Origin: a virus
Direction: 5' to 3' (one strand)
IMG/VR virus record: IMGVR_UViG_3300043788_000060
Location: 46,257 to 110,256 of that record
DNA: 64,000 bases
This document shows positions 197 through 6,750 of this stretch, piece by piece. The first letter of the stretch is position 1. Every line of letters begins with the position of its first letter. Under the pieces are notes generated by a model that was not told the origin of the DNA, searched no databases, and worked only from the letters and a program-made list of their open reading frames with translations. Position numbers and translations under genes: made by a program.

Positions 197-414
197 ATGA
201 GTTACTCTCCTACAAGTATCGTCACGAGCGGGGCGCTTCCGAACTTAGTCGCAATTCACTATGAGCGCGAAGCTGTTCCCAACCTCAAGGCGCAAACTCC
301 TTTCCTTTCCATGACCAAGCAGCGTCCGCTGCCGTTGCGGCAAGGTAACCAGATTCAGTTCTACACCTACGCGATCTTGGCTGCAAACCTGAACCAAGCC
401 GCTGAGGGAACCGT
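197..414 (+). CDS. Major capsid protein (N4-gp56-like family), exon 1; join(197..414,1472..2078,2297..2350,2573..2677), about 327 aa
   Basis: SD AAGGAG before ATG. MSYSPTS...KQRPLPLRQGNQIQFYTY...AEGTV continues in frame into GSPISESSTKIVATIGQYAD once the intron is removed. The exons total 984 nt, one open frame. Confidence 0.88.
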
Positions 415-461
415 GAATAAACCTGCGGTTCTAAAATTCGCCCAAATCCGTCAATACCTGT

Positions 462-489
462 TTGCAGAAGCCGCCTAGTGTGGTATAAT
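462..489 (+). promoter_or_regulatory. Sigma70-type promoter inside intron 1, upstream of the homing endonuclease
   Basis: TTGCAG-16 nt-TATAAT with extended -10 TGTGGTATAAT; the same motif recurs at other phage promoters. Confidence 0.65.
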
Positions 490-516
490 GTGAATAGACA
501 AGACGGAGGAAAATTC

Positions 517-1461
517 TTGCGAAGCGACATCCATCCCAAGCGTTGGGCTTTCATAGCCGGTCTAATTGACGGTGATGGAAGTTTCAGTATCCGATATGAC
601 AAAGAGTCCGGATATCAATTAACTGTTAACATATATTCGACATCGAGAAATCTGATGAACTGGTTGGTCAAGCTGATTGGTGGCCAGTATCGAAAGATGC
701 CTACGAAGGGCAATCGTAAACAGCGGTATGCTTGGTATTCAGGGAATTCAGAAATTCCCACCAATGTTGCTCCGTATCTCATTCTCAAGAAAAGTCAGGC
801 AGAGTCTTCCGTTCTATTCTTTAATCTTGGCTCAGAGAGAAATCCTCAAGCTAGAGAAGAATTGATGAGAGACATTCAAAATGCTAATGACTTTTATGTA
901 CCAGCCAATAAAAAAGATGTACAGGATAGTCGAAAAAATCCGATAGAACCCACCAAACTGGATTGGGCCTATCTCTCCGGATTGTTTGATGCTGAGGGGT
1001 CTTTCGGCCTCCAAAGGCGCAGCAAAAAGGGCAACGGTTCCTATACATCTTACGCACGAATTTCAAACACAGATAATCGGGTATTCTTGTGGATCGCGCC
1101 CCGCTTCGGCGGTCGGTTTTCGGTTACTACCAAGGAACACGATAAAGATGAAGGCGCATGGACGTTGTCCGGCTCCATCGGTTTAGAAGGAAGAAAAGAT
1201 CGAGAGAACAAACTCTTGGCTTTGGTTCCTTATCTGGTTGCTAAGAAAGAACGTGCGGTGCTCTTTATGGAGTGGATTAGAAATAACCACCTATTGACCA
1301 AAGAGCAAAAATTGGATTATTTTCTGAGAATGAAGGCGTTGAACAAACGCGGAATCTCTCTAGAGACTAATACGGCGAACTGTCCAGAAAATGGACAGAT
1401 GATAGAGTCCGATCCTGATAGCGATATCAGGTGCGACCCAGCAGTGATGTTGGAGTCCTAA
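517..1461 (+). CDS. Intron-encoded double-motif LAGLIDADG homing endonuclease
   Basis: Motifs FIAGLIDGDG and YLSGLFDAEG. TTG start at 517 follows SD GGAGG at 505-509. The track start at 478 falls inside the promoter. Confidence 0.9.
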   Translation: MRSDIHPKRWAFIAGLIDGDGSFSIRYDKESGYQLTVNIYSTSRNLMNWLVKLIGGQYRKMPTKGNRKQRYAWYSGNSEIPTNVAPYLILKKSQAESSVLFFNLGSERNPQAREELMRDIQNANDFYVPANKKDVQDSRKNPIEPTKLDWAYLSGLFDAEGSFGLQRRSKKGNGSYTSYARISNTDNRVFLWIAPRFGGRFSVTTKEHDKDEGAWTLSGSIGLEGRKDRENKLLALVPYLVAKKERAVLFMEWIRNNHLLTKEQKLDYFLRMKALNKRGISLETNTANCPENGQMIESDPDSDIRCDPAVMLES

Positions 1462-1471
1462 AACACAAATA

Positions 1472-2078
1472 AGGAAGCCCGATCTCCGAATCGAGCACCA
1501 AGATCGTTGCTACCATCGGGCAGTATGCCGATTTTATCAACAGTTCTGACTTGGCTCTCGACGTAGCAATCGACGATCCGGGTTTGCTCCAGAATCTGGC
1601 AAACGAACTCAACTACCGGCTTGCTCTTACCCTCAACTCTCTTGTCCAGATCACAGCGGACTCGGCAGTTGCGGTGGACTCGCTGGTCAACACACAACTG
1701 GCCAACGGCTCGTATCTGACGGCGAACAACCTTCGTTCGGCAGTTCAGTCGCTGGTATCGGTCAACGCACGGCCTCTCGTAAATAACTCCTACGGTGGAA
1801 TCATTCACCCGAACGTGGTACGAGACATCCTCAACGACACGTCTTTCAATGGTCTAACCGACATTGTAAAGCGCGATCCTGAGATGGCGAAGATGCTGTA
1901 CGAACTCCCGAAGAATGATGATGTTATCAAGTTCGCCGGGGTCACGTTCAAGCAAACAAGCACTGCGCCGACGGTGACCATCAGTTCGAACACGTATTAC
2001 AACACTTACATCTTCGGGGACGACGCGATTTTCAGCGTCTTCTTGGGCAAGAATCCCGAGGATGGATCGAAGAACTAT
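1472..2078 (+). CDS. Major capsid protein, exon 2
   Basis: GSPISESSTKIVATIGQYADFINSSDLALDVAIDDP...YGGIIHPNVVRDI...GVTF...KNY, typical N4-gp56-family capsid motifs. Confidence 0.9.
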
Positions 2079-2296
2079 TTGCAAAAAGTAGCTTGAGCGG
2101 GCAACTGCTCTCGAACAGACCGTAAATTCGGTGGAACCCTCACAGAGGCAATACCGAGCCAAGTCGCGAAAGCGGAAGGTGTAGAGACTAGAGACGGTCC
2201 TCCCTATGGGATGATAGTATAGTCCGGACTGCACAGCGATGTGCAGAGGCAAACAGAAATGATTTGCCCGTCCGAATAATGGACAGTAACAAAACG
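2079..2296 (+). ncRNA. Group I intron 2 (218 nt, no ORF)
   Basis: P1 CUAU/GUAG with U2078-G2088; P3 GACCGU/ACGGUC; P4 UUCGGU/ACCGAG; P7 GAGACUA/UAGUCC; P9 GCGA-loop hairpin; terminal G2296. Removal restores the frame (KNY-KLF). Confidence 0.92.
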
Positions 2297-2350
2297 AAAC
2301 TCTTCATCCAGAGTGCGCCTGAGCAGGGAAGTGTAAGTGATCCAGCACGT
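2297..2350 (+). CDS. Major capsid protein, exon 3 (18 codons, KLFIQSAPEQGSVSDPAR)
   Basis: Lies in frame between the terminal G of intron 2 and the P1 splice site of intron 3. Confidence 0.85.
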
Positions 2351-2572
2351 CAACTTTAGGCGTCACTAAGGCGAAATCCTTAGAAGAAAATTCTATCTAA
2401 TTGACTTGGAAGCTGAGAAGCCAACAAGGCGGAACCCAGAAATCGGGACCGTGAGAGACTAAACGATAGAACACCCTTTGGGGTGATGCGATAGTCCGGC
2501 CTCATACGAAATGAAGTATGAGAGGTGTGCAGAAATGACGCACCCCGTCCATTTTAGACGAGTAACATTCCG
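2351..2572 (+). ncRNA. Group I intron 3 (222 nt, no ORF)
   Basis: P1 ACGU/GCGU with U2350-G2360; P3 UUCUAUC/GAUAGAA; P7 GAGACUA/UAGUCC; P9.0 GG/CC; terminal G2572. Confidence 0.92.
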
Positions 2573-2677
2573 CAAATTGGAGGCTGGGTTTCTTACAATG
2601 TACGGTACACAAACACTTTGCGTCCGGGCAGCACAATGACGCTAAGACGTTTGCAATCAGAGACATCCAGTTCATAG
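2573..2677 (+). CDS. Major capsid protein, exon 4
   Basis: QIGGWVSYNVRYTNTLRPGSTMTLRRLQSETSSS-stop; the DP..Q.G.W pattern matches the C-terminus of this capsid family. Confidence 0.85.
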   Translation, partial: QIGGWVSYNVRYTNTLRPGSTMTLRRLQSETSSS

Positions 2678-2726
2678 GAGTCTTTGAAAAAATAGTTTCG
2701 AAATTCTTTACACAAAGCCATTAAAC

Positions 2727-2737
2727 TGTGGTATAAT
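2727..2737 (+). promoter_or_regulatory. Extended -10 promoter upstream of the GIY-YIG gene
   Basis: TGTGGTATAAT in intergenic DNA, with TTTACA upstream. Confidence 0.6.
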
Positions 2738-2817
2738 GTATTTGAGTTTCGAAATTCAAACCGGGAAGGGCGGTACCTCACTACCGCCCAACTCGACTCA
2801 TGTGAGGATGAGAGAAC

Positions 2818-3597
2818 ATGTATTACATCTATTTGGTAACGAATAAAGTCAACGGAAAGATTTATGTTGGTCAGACTGGGTTGACCATAGAGGAACGTTT
2901 TAAAAGTCACATCTGGTCTCGGAACAAGGACGATCATTTTCATGCGGCAATCCGAAAGTATGGAGAAGACGCTTTCGTCATCCAAGAGTTGGGCAAGTTC
3001 GAATCTCTCGAAGAAGCCAACAACGCAGAATCTTTGTGGATAATCTCCCTTCGATCCTACGACAGCAAAATTGGCTACAACACGAAATTTGGTGGCGAAA
3101 ACGGAGGAGCCCCCACCGAAGAAACAAGAATCAAAATCGGATTAGCAAGCAGCCAAAGAGTTCATGCTGCTGAGACTCGGGAAAAGATGCGAAATTCTCA
3201 TCTCAAACGCCAAGGAAAAACTACTTCCCACGAGGGAGTGGGGGTTTTTAAAGGACGTTTTCGGGCGAGAATCAAGATTCACGGAAAAGAAATTTCTTTG
3301 GGACAACACGATACCATTGAAGAGGCGGTTGAGTTTCGAAAAAAGAGTTTAGAACGGCTGAGCCAAATCGGACTAGAAGCTTTCACGGGAGAACTAGAAA
3401 TCTTCCGTAAAGAAGTAAACAAGAAAAGAATCGCAAACCGGCCTCACAGAGGACCTTTATCTGACGAAGAAAAGGAACAGATTAGTATTCGCACCAAGAA
3501 ACGATGGGCGAAGAACTTTAATTGGATGGACGCTCAATTCGTTTCTCCCTTTGTAACGGACGCCCAAACCCAGCAGAACGATCAGGTTGCATCATGA
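2818..3597 (+). CDS. Free-standing GIY-YIG homing endonuclease (NUMOD3-like and AP2-like DNA-binding parts)
   Basis: YIYLVTNKVNGKIYVGQT...GYN; EETRIKI and ETREKMR repeats; FRARIKIHGKEISLGQHDTIEEA. Confidence 0.88.
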   Translation: MYYIYLVTNKVNGKIYVGQTGLTIEERFKSHIWSRNKDDHFHAAIRKYGEDAFVIQELGKFESLEEANNAESLWIISLRSYDSKIGYNTKFGGENGGAPTEETRIKIGLASSQRVHAAETREKMRNSHLKRQGKTTSHEGVGVFKGRFRARIKIHGKEISLGQHDTIEEAVEFRKKSLERLSQIGLEAFTGELEIFRKEVNKKRIANRPHRGPLSDEEKEQISIRTKKRWAKNFNWMDAQFVSPFVTDAQTQQNDQVAS

Positions 3598-3863
3598 GCT
3601 ACGAAACTTGGTTTCACGGCACGAACGAGGATTCGGCTCGTCTAATTATTCAAACCGGATTTCAACCCGGAACATATTTTGCAAAACACATGGAAGACGC
3701 AATCATATTTGGCGGTCCCTGCGTTTTCTGGATTAGAGTAGAATGGGAGCGAAAGAGTTTGGACGGATGGCAGCAGATAAGTTCTAACCATATTCCATCC
3801 AAGGCAATTGTAGGATTTTTCCTTGGAGAAGGTTGGTTCGAAGAAGCCAAGGAGGCCGCATGA
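3594..3863 (+). CDS. Small ADP-ribosyltransferase-fold-like protein
   Basis: WFHGT...IIQTGF...YFA pattern of ART-fold proteins; ATGA overlap with the upstream stop. Confidence 0.5.
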   Translation: MSYETWFHGTNEDSARLIIQTGFQPGTYFAKHMEDAIIFGGPCVFWIRVEWERKSLDGWQQISSNHIPSKAIVGFFLGEGWFEEAKEAA

Positions 3864-4108
3864 TCGCCTGTTGCGGGAGCCGGGCTATTGCGGATTATTG
3901 CAAACGGTGCGGTCGGAATTTAACGGCTCTTGGGCAATACCGAGATTATGTTCACTATGTCCCCGGAACTCAGACCCCATGTTTGACCATCGAAGAAGCC
4001 CTCGGAATGACCGAAGAGGAATTTGACGAGATAATAAATCCTCTTCAAGAAGAACTCGCAAGAAAGCTATCCGAAACCATTGACCTTTTAGTAAAGGATT
4101 TCACCTAA
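3860..4108 (+). CDS. Hypothetical protein with Cys motifs
   Basis: SD AGGAGG, ATGA coupling, CC..CxxC. Confidence 0.6.
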   Translation: MIACCGSRAIADYCKRCGRNLTALGQYRDYVHYVPGTQTPCLTIEEALGMTEEEFDEIINPLQEELARKLSETIDLLVKDFT

Positions 4109-4215
4109 TGCCCGTCTCCCCAGCATCCTCCAGTACCGGCCTGACAACTACCACAGCGGTTTTCTACGGCGCGAAAAAGAAACCCAAGCCGAGGAAGAAG
4201 CCAAAGAAGAAATGA
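4108..4215 (+). CDS. 35-aa peptide with a Lys-rich tail (MPVSPASSSTGLTTTTAVFYGAKKKPKPRKKPKKK)
   Basis: TAATG coupling at the start and ATGA coupling at the end; below the ORF-track cutoff. Confidence 0.55.
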   Translation: MPVSPASSSTGLTTTTAVFYGAKKKPKPRKKPKKK

Positions 4216-4334
4216 CGGCGCTTTGGATAGTCGGGATAAGTTTAGGATGCCTTCTTGTAGCCACAATTGCAGCGGCGGTCGTCATCGGCATTGCTAAACA
4301 AGCTATCAACTATTTCATTGGTCGCTCTCGATGA
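4212..4334 (+). CDS. 40-aa single-TM membrane peptide
   Basis: Coupled start and a long hydrophobic stretch. Confidence 0.5.
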   Translation: MTALWIVGISLGCLLVATIAAAVVIGIAKQAINYFIGRSR

Positions 4335-4447
4335 CGACGATCTAGTAGCCGACGGAACCCTGTCCGAAGAAGAACTGAAAGAAGCGGTCGAGAAATTCAG
4401 GCGGCTGCGGTCGGCGCACTCCGAAGTTTGGGAAGAAGAGGAGTCCG

Positions 4448-4714
4448 ATGTTTAAAAAGGTCCGCCTGAGCCTGCCTGCCTATTATTGCGTTCTTGGACA
4501 GTTCCCGCATTGTGACCAAAGAATTCTTCACGCCCGGGGCGAGTGCCAATATTGTGATAAGCACCCAGACTGGCAAGCTCTTCGGGAGGCGTGGGGAATA
4601 TCCTTTACTGGATACGAACCGGAAGACAAAGAATTGCCCTGTCCGGCGGATTATGCACGAGGAGATTCTCATAAGCTCTGGTATGGAAACGTAGCAGCGA
4701 AGGAGTCCGAATAA
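4448..4714 (+). CDS. Hypothetical Cys/His-rich protein
   Basis: SD GAGGAG; HC..H..CxxC. Confidence 0.65.
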   Translation: MFKKVRLSLPAYYCVLGQFPHCDQRILHARGECQYCDKHPDWQALREAWGISFTGYEPEDKELPCPADYARGDSHKLWYGNVAAKESE

Positions 4715-4950
4715 TGGACAAATTCAACCCATTTCGCAAGCTGGTCCCAAAGTCCAACCGAGTTGTCGGCGCAGTCAAAGCAATCCCGCTGTGGTTCCGG
4801 CCTAACATCAAACCGTGGGGTTACTACTCCGGAAGATTGGAAAGTCGTCCGGATTTCCGGAGACCGAACAGGGTACATCGAATCGAGATTTGTGCAGTAG
4901 TTTTTTACTGCATTTGCAGTAAAATGCCCGAGAGGGCCAAAACCAACTGA
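4714..4950 (+). CDS. Hypothetical basic protein
   Basis: TAATG coupling supplied by a copy of the 15-bp site. Confidence 0.4.
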   Translation: MDKFNPFRKLVPKSNRVVGAVKAIPLWFRPNIKPWGYYSGRLESRPDFRRPNRVHRIEICAVVFYCICSKMPERAKTN

Positions 4951-4995
4951 CTTTAATTCTGAGCACCTAGTCAGTGTGCTGTTCAAGGAGAACAC

Positions 4996-5940
4996 ATGAT
5001 GTACACGCAGGGATACATAGCATCTTTGAAGGTCGGAGGTAAAATCCTCCGGGAATCAAACGGAACAGTTTCGCTCCCATTTGGGTCTGAATATTCCGTG
5101 CTCCTCAAAAACAAACTCTCCCGTCGGGCTCAAGTCAAAGTCGAAGTAGACGGCCAAGACGCGACCGAGGGAACCAAGCTGATCCTGCCCGCAAACGGAT
5201 CGCTGGAGCTAGAACGCTTTATCAAGTCTGGCAACCTAAAAGCGGGCAACAAGTTCAAGTTTATCGAACGGACTTCGAAGATCGAAGAACACCGGGGAAT
5301 CAAAGAAGACGACGGCTTGATCCGAATCGAATTCTGGGCTGAGAAAGAAGTCGTAGATGTACCGGTTGTCCGGCATCATTATTACGATGATTGGGTTCCA
5401 GTCCGCAGATATTACTGGGATCGCCCGTGGTATGATCCGTACTACCCGACATGGCCTCAACCGACGATTACTTGGAATTCCAATTCCGGTATCCAAACTT
5501 CCTGCTATAATACAAGCGGAAGTTTAGGAGAGGCACAAAGCGATAATCTGGGCTCGGCGCAAAATTTTTCTGGCAGTTTGCAAAAATCTTCTGCGAGACA
5601 GACCAGAAGTCTACACCCGCAAGCGTCTAGCGGCATCACTCGCGATTCAGGTCAGCAAGTTCATGCTCAGAACTGCATGATGGCGGAAACCAGTTTCAAC
5701 GACGCAGGAATCACGGTCCCGGGAAGTCACTCAAACCAAGAGTTCCAAAGCACTTACGGGTTTGAAACCGAATCGAACAGTCACGTGATTGTACTTCAGT
5801 TGCGGGGTGTGGTTGGGGACAAACCAGTCGTAGTTCCGGTTACCGTAGACCACAAGCCGGTCTGCCCAACCTGCGGAACTACAAACAAGGCGCAAAATAA
5901 ATTCTGCAAAGAATGCGGAACGGCCTTGCAATTAGTCTAA
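4996..5940 (+). CDS. Hypothetical phage protein with a beta-rich N-domain and C-terminal double zinc ribbon
   Basis: SD AAGGAG; 314 aa; CPTCG..NKFCKECG. Confidence 0.8.
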   Translation: MMYTQGYIASLKVGGKILRESNGTVSLPFGSEYSVLLKNKLSRRAQVKVEVDGQDATEGTKLILPANGSLELERFIKSGNLKAGNKFKFIERTSKIEEHRGIKEDDGLIRIEFWAEKEVVDVPVVRHHYYDDWVPVRRYYWDRPWYDPYYPTWPQPTITWNSNSGIQTSCYNTSGSLGEAQSDNLGSAQNFSGSLQKSSARQTRSLHPQASSGITRDSGQQVHAQNCMMAETSFNDAGITVPGSHSNQEFQSTYGFETESNSHVIVLQLRGVVGDKPVVVPVTVDHKPVCPTCGTTNKAQNKFCKECGTALQLV

Positions 5941-5953
5941 AGTGTGGTATAAT
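5926..5953 (+). promoter_or_regulatory. Sigma70-type promoter in front of the large ncRNA candidate
   Basis: TTGCAA-16 nt-TATAAT with extended -10. Confidence 0.7.
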
Positions 5954-5959
5954 GTATTT

Positions 5960-6750
5960 GTTAGGTAGCGGGTTTCACCGGCCAAGGCGGAGTCTTTAAG
6001 CGAGAACAAAAACGGGAATGACTCTAACCGGTAGAGTGACCTTGGTTTGCAGATAGCAACATAACCGCCCAGAGCGTGATTATGCTGCCTATAAATTTCG
6101 AGTTTGCGTAAATCGAGGGATGCTGGCTACTGAGGAGCGAAGGTAGCTGGATCGGGAACTTCCCAAACCACCCCGATCTTTGCCCTCCTTGCTCAGAAAT
6201 GACGATTTACGCAATGAAGGTGAGGGCCACGGTTGGTCATACGTCCAAACTGTTGGGTAGGTACTGGATGGGACAGCCTCCAACAGCCCGTGGCCTGATT
6301 CCCAAAGGACAACATGATTGATTCAGAGTTTGGTTGGTGGCGTAGTTGGATTAGTGAGCTTCTTTCCTAGATCGATCTGGGAAAGATGAACCAGAGGTAG
6401 TTTCAGTTCAGCCCTCTCACCCCCGGAAGTCATGAGCCGGACTCGGGTGCTTATTAGAACTGAAGCGGGGATGGGGCTCGGGTTTGGCCTCAACGCATAC
6501 CCACGGGGTTCATTACCCAACAGGCCCAACATTTTAGGTTTGACCCTCTTCGGAGGAGAACAGCAACAAGCGGAACTTTAGTTCACACAAACTTGAGTTT
6601 TGACGCATCCCCCTCGCCCGGTACCTGCTTGTTTGGGGTGGCCCCTGAATTCCTAGGAATTCAGTAATCCGGTGGTCAAATGGTGGTGACACCTACCAGC
6701 CTGTGTGGGCAAAGTGGTGTGACTCTAGCATTCTCAGAGTAGAAGCTTAA
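5960..6750 (+). ncRNA. Large (~790 nt) structured ncRNA candidate, GOLLD/ROOL size class
   Basis: No + strand ORF of 60 aa or more in a gene-dense genome; own promoter; long-range helices 5962-5969/6084-6091, 6104-6115/6203-6214, 6225-6232/6288-6295, 6402-6409/6457-6464, 6357-6363/6741-6747. Confidence 0.7.

Follow-up and report, generated by a model that had tools for sequence, protein, structure and literature searches.

Capsid gene of a soil-type phage predicted to be split by three group I introns, one of which may end in A

Results

The major capsid protein (MCP) gene at positions 197-2677 (+ strand) was analysed in a 64-kb window, i.e. the whole stretch of 64,000 nt comprising bases 46257-110256 of the IMG/VR record IMGVR_UViG_3300043788_000060. 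The record is the 110,256-bp genome of a soil-type phage and is rated 100% complete by CheckV. On the 5' side of the capsid gene lie TerL, portal and then an open reading frame (ORF) of 382 aa, which ends at position 180. The capsid gene consists of four predicted exons, joining to 984 nt (327 codons and stop), and of three inserts which, on sequence grounds, are group I introns. The first insert contains a gene for a LAGLIDADG endonuclease, and a gene for a GIY-YIG endonuclease is located downstream (Table 1). We assign a probability of about 0.85 to the reading that one capsid gene is split by three group I introns and spliced to a 327-aa product.

The joining of four exons to a 984-nt frame, claimed in an initial annotation of this DNA, was confirmed by gap-free alignment to intron-less homologues of 327-328 aa (e.g. 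P0004, P0009), with zero gaps against nine full-length relatives. The exons likewise match the DNA of the intron-less alleles L007, L014 and L017 base by base through the junctions. None of them is damaged, and their identity to relatives is 88-98%. For exon 2 the identity is 97-98% to IMG/VR relatives and 41% to the major head protein of Tunturi_3. The micro-exon KLFIQSAPEQGSVSDPAR is also present in L022. In the 110-kb genome no second MCP copy was found. Thus, the single gene would need three splicing events for a full-length protein, as had been claimed. The junction peptides KNYKLFIQ and DPARQIGGW are correct in the joined translation; AAEGTVGSPISESSTK, NYKLFIQSAPEQGSVSDPAR and QIGGWVSYNVR are predicted to span the junctions of the spliced product.

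A search of 5.8 billion proteins yielded 263 relatives, many of them full-length (326-330 aa) and many others shortened (172-284 aa). The shortened relatives P0001, P0007 and P0096 begin with MGSPISE. Since such shortened proteins stand in the databases beside those of 327 aa, the earlier expectation that gene callers report fragments of this gene is borne out. Tunturi_3 was the sole cultured relative found by protein comparison. A megablast search against a phage collection gave zero matches, and sequence and profile searches of the PDB with the capsid protein gave nothing meaningful.

Exons 1 and 2 match phrog_1357 ('major head protein') with E-values of 8.5e-6 and 3.1e-9, respectively, and are collinear on the profile. 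The 60-bit cut-off of NCBIfam TIGR04387 (N4-gp56) was not reached. P0004 scored 39.9 bits, and exons 1 and 2 scored 16.8 and 27.1 bits, again collinear. Some relatives are labelled N4-gp56 family major capsid protein by JGI. As judged by these comparisons, the protein is best called a distant relative of the N4-gp56 family. For a phage major head protein a profile match, TerL and portal upstream and an annotated relative of 41% identity were found, and the gene is predicted to be an N4-gp56-like, HK97-type head protein gene.

The helices of a group I ribozyme could be assigned in all three inserts (Table 1). The splice-site U.G wobble is present in P1 of each intron; that of intron 3 was read straight from the sequence. 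The 5' strand of P7 is GAGACUA in every case (1363-1369, 2184-2190, 2455-2461), and the 3' strand is GAGUCC in intron 1 (1405-1410) and UAGUCC in introns 2 (2220-2225) and 3 (2492-2497). The guanosine-binding pairs of P7 are G1365-C1409, G2186-C2224 and G2457-C2496. Each of them follows a bulged A, and the pair is invariant in relatives. Introns 2 and 3 are without P5abc, P7.1 and P7.2, and have a conserved P9.1 loop (AGAAAUGA) and a GUAACA tail in common. The terminal omega G is present in introns 2 and 3 and absent in intron 1, by the end that homology and P10 define. The P1 U-G pairs and P7 strands of the initial annotation are all in place; its coordinates for intron 2, exon 3 and intron 3 also agree with ours.

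A check with the Rfam group I model RF00028, proposed earlier, gave a divided result. All three inserts were matched in E-value mode, with 47.6 bits (E 2.3e-10) for intron 2, 20.8 bits for the 3' core of intron 1 and 20.5 bits for intron 3, but the curated gathering threshold is 50 bits. Across the 64-kb window and the 110-kb genome this model had no match beyond the three capsid-gene inserts. Because the scores were below 50 bits, comparative support was sought. Ten distinct copies of the intron 2 family, positioned at codon 275 or a few bases downstream, were aligned. RNAalifold recovered P1, P2, P3, P4, P5, P6, P6a, P8, P9, P9.1 and P9.2, and P7 was added as a pseudoknot. In these 12 helices, including the P3/P7 pseudoknot, pairing holds in 97% of the cells and compensatory changes affect 37 of 60 pairs; in slid controls the figures are 36-40% and 6-12 pairs.

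Seven relatives of intron 1 were available (L015/L020, L019, L021, L024, L080, L061, L111). In the full-length alignment of eight copies P1, P3, P4, P7, P8, P9 and P9.1 are 98% paired, with compensatory changes in 21 of 43 pairs. A covariance model of the P3-P9 core, R1, was built from intron-2 relatives only and contains no intron-3 sequence. It matched intron 3 with 43.6 bits (E 2e-10) and the 3' core of intron 1 with 28.4 bits (E 3e-6); across the window and the whole genome no further matches were detected. L022, L025, L037 and L079 share the intron 3 site and carry near-identical copies there, in which P2 and P9.1 show compensatory changes. In general, the match to group I features is far above chance. 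The shortfall against Rfam fits compact or ORF-split introns, and the family-specific covariation makes up for it.

An intein, frameshifting and read-through were considered for the inserts as well. They were ruled out because none of the frames is open through the inserts, which fold as ribozymes.

A separate observation concerns the core of intron 2 from P5 to P7 (2147-2192). Short high-depth contigs from two metatranscriptome runs match only this conserved part of the ribozyme, and their flanks diverge to either side. Soil and wetland RNA seems to be rich in related intron cores from other phages.

Junction 1 was left unstated in the initial annotation. Two solutions give 984 nt, 414/1472 and 424/1482, and the former is favoured here. 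The homology of exon 1 to L007, L014 and L017 ends after ACCGT, and identity to intron-less DNA resumes at N GGN AGC/TCN CCN. The start of exon 2, A GGA AGC CCG, corresponds to the third position of Val and the Gly-Ser-Pro of the homologues. Thereby the motif EGTVGSPI is restored, which is found in essentially all of them. P1 of intron 1 has 8 bp, formed by GGAACCGU (407-414) and GCGGUUCU (425-432). U414.G425 is paired in all eight copies, and an A-U pair is compensated to G-C in L061 and L111. P10 (AGG with CCU) abuts P1.

With this junction (marked by a slash) the intron 1 copies have two kinds of 3' end, RUA/A in the window, L019, L024 and L080 and RUG/C or AAG/C in L015, L021, L061 and L111. 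The two kinds are alike at every position of the catalytic core; the positions that set them apart are third positions of the ORF and positions of the exon flanks. Junctions mapped by homology alone (104 distinct) have U...G ends in 96 cases. Of the eight exceptions only the four A-ending copies of intron 1 are clean; the other four were mis-mapped or have a near-equal canonical solution.

A LAGLIDADG-bearing relative of intron 1 was seen in a distant capsid homologue (L152, 4390-5025), between a conserved His and Pro near residue 185. Its 3' end reads ...AAUA/CCUUUU, and a P1 of 6 bp (AUCCAU/GUGGAU) and a perfect P10 of 6 bp (CCUUUU/AAAAGG) bracket the homology junction. This capsid gene has a second intron further upstream (about 3770-3985).

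Related loci were collected by scanning IMG/VR with exon 2, which gave 80 loci. Half of the distinct full-length relatives (25 of 50) are intron-less, and the rest contain one to at least eight introns, the upper figure being a lower bound. The insertion points are distributed over roughly 20 positions along the 327 codons. In the 80 loci the model gave 124 hits, every one of them within the capsid gene region and on the strand of the gene. For L061 (2059-5682) eight introns were found in a capsid gene of about 984 nt. In the pair L077/L078 (about 2500-6330), L077 has eight ribozyme-core matches and at least nine exonic pieces; an extra long gap of L077 holds a LAGLIDADG-like ORF, with no ribozyme-model match there. 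L037 (251-3357) and L022 (2270-5348) are also intron-rich. The shortest predicted introns of the relatives have 167-191 nt and the shortest exons about 15-50 nt; LAGLIDADG genes are located in the long introns.

Searches for relatives of intron 1 by DNA patterns gave mostly chance matches, and the first patterns detected nothing new in viral contigs. A metagenome scan added L111 only, and a P7 pattern added L152, L153 and L160. The latter two (IMG/VR 3300025961_000030 and 3300009553_000109) contain group I introns with the same P7/J8-7 and AGAAAUGA loop in other genes. Thus, the intron family is not limited to this capsid gene family.

The LAGLIDADG ORF of intron 1 has the two motifs LIDGDGSF and LFDAEGSF. 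The longest ORF begins at 478, and the likely start is TTG at 517 after GGAGG (505-509). This Shine-Dalgarno sequence shares bases with the 3' strand of P4, and the last 100 nt of the ORF encode P7-P9.1. Intact orthologues with 58-83% identity occur in the same intron of L015, L019, L021, L024, L061 and L080. The free-standing GIY-YIG gene matches the homing endonuclease profile phrog_314 (E 1e-29) and TIGR01453 (47.6 bits, below its cut-off). Its close orthologues (66-90% identity) are confined to the intron-3-bearing loci L025, L037 and L079. In L022, which carries intron 3, a divergent GIY-YIG gene is found in the same place. Intron 3 probably travels together with the downstream GIY-YIG gene, as read from co-occurrence in five loci, and we infer homing roles for both endonucleases. 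In collaborative homing a free-standing endonuclease acts together with an ORF-less intron (cyanophage psbA/F-CphI, T-even examples). Comparably, the site of the ORF-less intron 3 is a few hundred bases away from the co-occurring endonuclease gene; in contrast to these examples, co-occurrence is what links the two here.

Both endonuclease ORFs are preceded by the extended -10-type sequence TGTGGTATAATG (479-490 and 2727-2738), which suggests that the endonucleases have their own promoters. The promoter-like TGTGGTATAAT in intron 1 is exact in four of eight relatives and one base off in two more. Between the promoter-like site and the GIY-YIG start lies a G+C-rich hairpin, GGGCGGTACC...CTACCGCCC (2768-2789). 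A different hairpin is found at the same position in L022 (about 5445-5470). The hairpin of the window may control translation of the endonuclease.

Table 1 Predicted features of the capsid locus (window positions)
Feature	Position	Strand	Details
MCP exon 1	197..414	+	218 nt; ATG at 197, AAGGAG 8 nt upstream; phrog_1357 positions 21-82
Intron 1, predicted group I, no P2	415..1471	+	1057 nt; endonuclease ORF looped out after P4; last base A1471
Intron 1 helices	P1 407-414/425-432 (U414.G425); P10 A1472-G1474 with C422-U424; P3 437-442/1374-1379; P4 448-452/502-506; P7 1363,1365-1368/1406-1410; P8 1380-1385/1393-1398; P9 1414-1420/1425-1431; P9.1 1438-1443/1448-1453	+	
Promoter-like site, TTTGCA-17-TATAAT with TG	461..489	+	P5 region of intron 1, before LAGLIDADG ORF; 10/12 match, extended -10
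LAGLIDADG homing endonuclease ORF in intron 1	517..1461	+	314 aa; Pfam LAGLIDADG_1 (PF00961) 46.8 bits, cut-off 23.1
MCP exon 2	1472..2078	+	607 nt; phrog_1357 positions 103-233
Intron 2, predicted group I, no ORF	2079..2296	+	218 nt; last base G2296
Intron 2 helices	P1 2075-2080/2086-2091 (U2078.G2088); P2 2095-2100/2105-2110; P3 2118-2122/2195-2199; P4 2129-2133/2152-2156; P5 2138-2141/2145-2148; P6 2158-2160/2178-2180; P6a 2164-2167/2172-2175; P7 2184,2186-2190/2220-2225; P8 2201-2204/2208-2211; P9 2229-2235/2240-2246; P9.1 2248-2253/2263-2268; P9.2 2270-2273/2281-2284	+	
MCP exon 3, micro-exon	2297..2350	+	54 nt; collinear with intron-less alleles at nucleotide level
Intron 3, predicted group I, no ORF	2351..2572	+	222 nt; last base G2572
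Intron 3 helices	P1 2347-2351/2359-2363 (U2350.G2360); P2 2366-2371/2378-2383; P3 2392-2397/2465-2470; P7 2455,2457-2461/2492-2497	+	
MCP exon 4	2573..2677	+	105 nt including TAG; C-terminus identical or near-identical in homologues
Promoter-like site before GIY-YIG gene	2709-2737	+	
Free-standing GIY-YIG homing endonuclease gene	2818..3597	+	141 nt past MCP stop; Pfam GIY-YIG (PF01541) 41.2 bits, cut-off 22.6

Discussion

From the arrangement of exons and ribozyme elements we infer that the capsid transcript is spliced. Three ribozymes would form in the primary transcript of 197-2677, and in each of them an internal guide would pair with the end of the exon before it (P1, with the U.G wobble). 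A guanosine cofactor would cut at the P1 splice site, and the exons would then be ligated to the 984-nt frame for the 327-aa capsid protein. Intron 1 carries its own LAGLIDADG endonuclease; introns 2 and 3 are compact and ORF-less.

Several points weigh against this picture. The identity of the capsid protein rests on family profiles, synteny and the annotation of the 41%-identical relative, and an AlphaFold2 model of an intron-less homologue was poor (pLDDT 47, 18-sequence alignment). The RF00028 scores of all three introns remain under 50 bits, with no match at the gathering threshold. RNA contigs of the metatranscriptomes X9 and X12 (region 150-2750) join 414 to 1479 with CGGCTCA between and 2078 to 2300 with AAG between, which agrees precisely with the predicted exon ends, but they come from relatives of 85-95% identity and are possibly transcripts of intron-less alleles. 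Since such alleles exist as DNA, these contigs cannot separate spliced RNA from intron-less genes. For intron 1, a terminal A is expected to bind poorly to a canonical guanosine site, and the G-C pair of P7 is unchanged despite the A end. A core position covarying with the A or G end was sought among the intron-1 copies, and none was found. Furthermore, the A-ending copies are related to each other and hence do not represent four independent events.

For junction 1 the balance tips slightly towards P10-guided splicing after A1471, which would give ...AEGTVGSPISE... and make intron 1 a natural group I intron without terminal G. An intron of 1060 nt with the canonical end G1474 would yield a capsid protein one Gly shorter, ...AEGTV-SPISE.... 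We consider this end rather unlikely, yet it is the strongest competitor. Terminal G is the rule, as the 96 of 104 U...G junctions and the unchanged guanosine-binding pair illustrate, and AGG follows the A in all four A-ending copies, so that a G is available 3 nt downstream with the frame kept. However, the roughly 110 homologues covering this stretch all keep the residue in question, with the motif EGTV[G/Q]SPI throughout. P10 (with C422-C423) and the guanosine site would need the GG simultaneously, and the shifted exon allows no P10. The last three intron bases align column by column (RUA against RUG or AAG), and L152 offers no in-frame G that preserves the conserved His-Pro spacing. A junction 10 nt further downstream on both sides, U424/A1482, would likewise keep canonical ends, frame and the length of 984 nt, with the product ...AEGTVNKPISE.... 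It is open in the four A-ending copies (NKP, NKP, NLP, NSP). Nevertheless, we regard it as highly improbable. U424 adjoins G425 and thus cannot form the P1 wobble, and no other guide sequence is present. The base before AUC is C or U in L015, L021, L061 and L111, so this solution does not hold for these copies of the intron at the identical site. The homologues read GSP, encoded at 1473-1481, and the P1 loop sequence is not conserved as protein.

Besides splicing after A1471, the fate and the purpose of the whole arrangement have to be considered. The gene could be dead, with at least one intron, especially the A-ending intron 1, no longer splicing in a defective phage or an assembly chimera. 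The RNA contigs come from relatives, the 3' end of intron 1 is non-canonical and the genome is a metagenome assembly. This explanation has very little probability in our view. The gene is the sole capsid gene of a genome rated as complete, and its exons are undamaged. Helices and the endonuclease ORF are maintained by compensatory or synonymous change across diverged contigs of different samples. The A-ending form was found in four contigs, with endonucleases only 66-79% identical to that of the window. A regulatory role of the introns in capsid synthesis could also explain why they are kept; it could act on timing or dosage, or by skipping the 54-nt exon in frame, and the initial annotation had proposed that splicing could time or meter capsid production. 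Three serial splicing steps must affect the yield, the length of the micro-exon is divisible by three, and for Twort orf142 and Coxiella 23S rRNA the skipping of an exon between adjacent group I introns is on record (PMC10136302). The data give no support for it, and such a role appears improbable. Intron presence varies freely among close relatives, from zero to at least eight, with about half of the distinct ones lacking any, and the introns are accompanied by endonuclease genes in or beside them. The guides of introns 2 and 3 differ (AAGUAG vs GGCGU), which makes cross-use of splice sites unlikely, and we found no regulatory element.

The most plausible reading is that the introns are selfish mobile elements, which invaded a conserved and essential late gene, and not a regulatory device. 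This follows from their patchy presence, the endonuclease linkage and the conserved target sites. A wider proposal combines two parts, and we put it forward tentatively, at a little less than even odds. The A-ending intron lineage would truly splice after a 3' A, with the site fixed by P10 and the guanosine site unchanged, and the capsid gene would be a private intron hot spot. According to this proposal A- and G-ending forms share one site and an A-ending relative occupies a second. The hot spot would comprise about 20 sites with up to at least 8-9 introns and exons of about 15-50 nt, and none elsewhere in the genome.

A natural intron without terminal G is not without parallel. The 23S rRNA intron Cbu.L1917 of Coxiella burnetii reportedly is self-splicing and lacks the terminal G (Raghavan et al. 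2007). It ends in A and adjoins a second intron across a short exon. In contrast to this single case in a bacterial rRNA gene, the present intron lies in a protein-coding phage gene, A- and G-ending versions coexist, and a related intron at a second site is also A-ending.

Published precedents exist for introns in phage capsid genes, for several introns in one gene and for micro-exons. Spliced capsid and tail genes were described for Cluster J mycobacteriophages (Pope et al. 2013, PMC3706429). They resemble the present case in an intron of the major capsid gene, a genome of about 110 kb rich in homing endonucleases and a virion protein that needs splicing. Cluster J has one intron per gene, verified by RT-PCR, whereas three introns, one with a LAGLIDADG ORF, are known from sequence here. 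For crAss-like phages of the Delta and Zeta groups group I introns were reported in core genes including the MCP gene, one MCP being in five fragments (Yutin et al. 2021, PMC7886860). These phages, too, have MCP introns and are known from metagenomes only. In contrast, their introns occupy many genes, with as many as 14 per genome, and were identified through protein domains; here they are restricted to the MCP gene, mostly ORF-less and backed by RNA covariation. In Jug phages about 18 small introns per genome (about 206 nt) were found, terL is split two to three times and splicing was seen in metatranscriptomes (PMC12880540). ORF-less introns of about 200 nt in essential genes and free-standing homing endonucleases nearby are common to both. 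However, Jug phages are gut phages of 360-400 kb with introns in terL, nrdD, a polymerase gene and others, and here one target gene of a 110-kb soil-type phage is concerned.

Two assertions of the initial annotation have to be revised in view of these cases. Its view that phage group I introns mostly interrupt DNA-metabolism genes is outdated, as spliced capsid and tail, MCP and terL genes have been published. Introns of 218 and 222 nt, described there as close to the smallest known, are small but not extreme, given those of Jug phages and the even shorter predicted introns of the relatives.

Short exons between introns have counterparts as well. According to the account in PMC10136302, Twort orf142 has three group I introns, a 23-nt exon and exon skipping (Landthaler and Shub 1999), and in Coxiella a 34-nt exon lies between two introns. 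As far as described there, Twort orf142 and the present gene share three introns in one gene and a very short exon (23 and 54 nt, respectively) between two similar introns. By the same account the Twort introns belong to subgroup IA2 and skipping was shown experimentally; unlike these, the introns found here are compact and without P7.1/P7.2.

In the literature no paper on this phage clade was found. Three features go further than the published cases found, namely the lineage of A-ending introns, the confinement of all introns to a single gene and the number of introns that this gene carries in relatives. Gene callers miss or shorten the capsid gene of this clade, and the fragments in protein sets distort phage taxonomy and detection that rely on the capsid. 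With zero to at least eight introns in one essential gene of about 1 kb, the clade forms a natural series in which intron spread and target saturation could be studied, and this series includes both intron-borne and free-standing endonucleases. Furthermore, the matched A- and G-ending versions with identical cores would be a system for the second splicing step without terminal G. The general picture of such introns as selfish passengers is unchanged.

A minor observation was made for the P9.2 hairpin of intron 2 (2270-2284). It is an exact copy of a genome-wide 15-nt motif, GTCCGAATAATGGAC, of which 30 copies with at most two mismatches occur in the window (e.g. at 4705, 8459, 10769, 26072, 35060 and 39275) vs 0.16 expected. 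Three mismatches separate the P8 hairpin of intron 1 from the motif, and in L024 and L080 this hairpin is exact. The ribozyme does not need this motif, because the same intron hairpin has unrelated loops in other phages. Possibly a phage factor binds the motif as an RNA hairpin, or it is a small mobile module.

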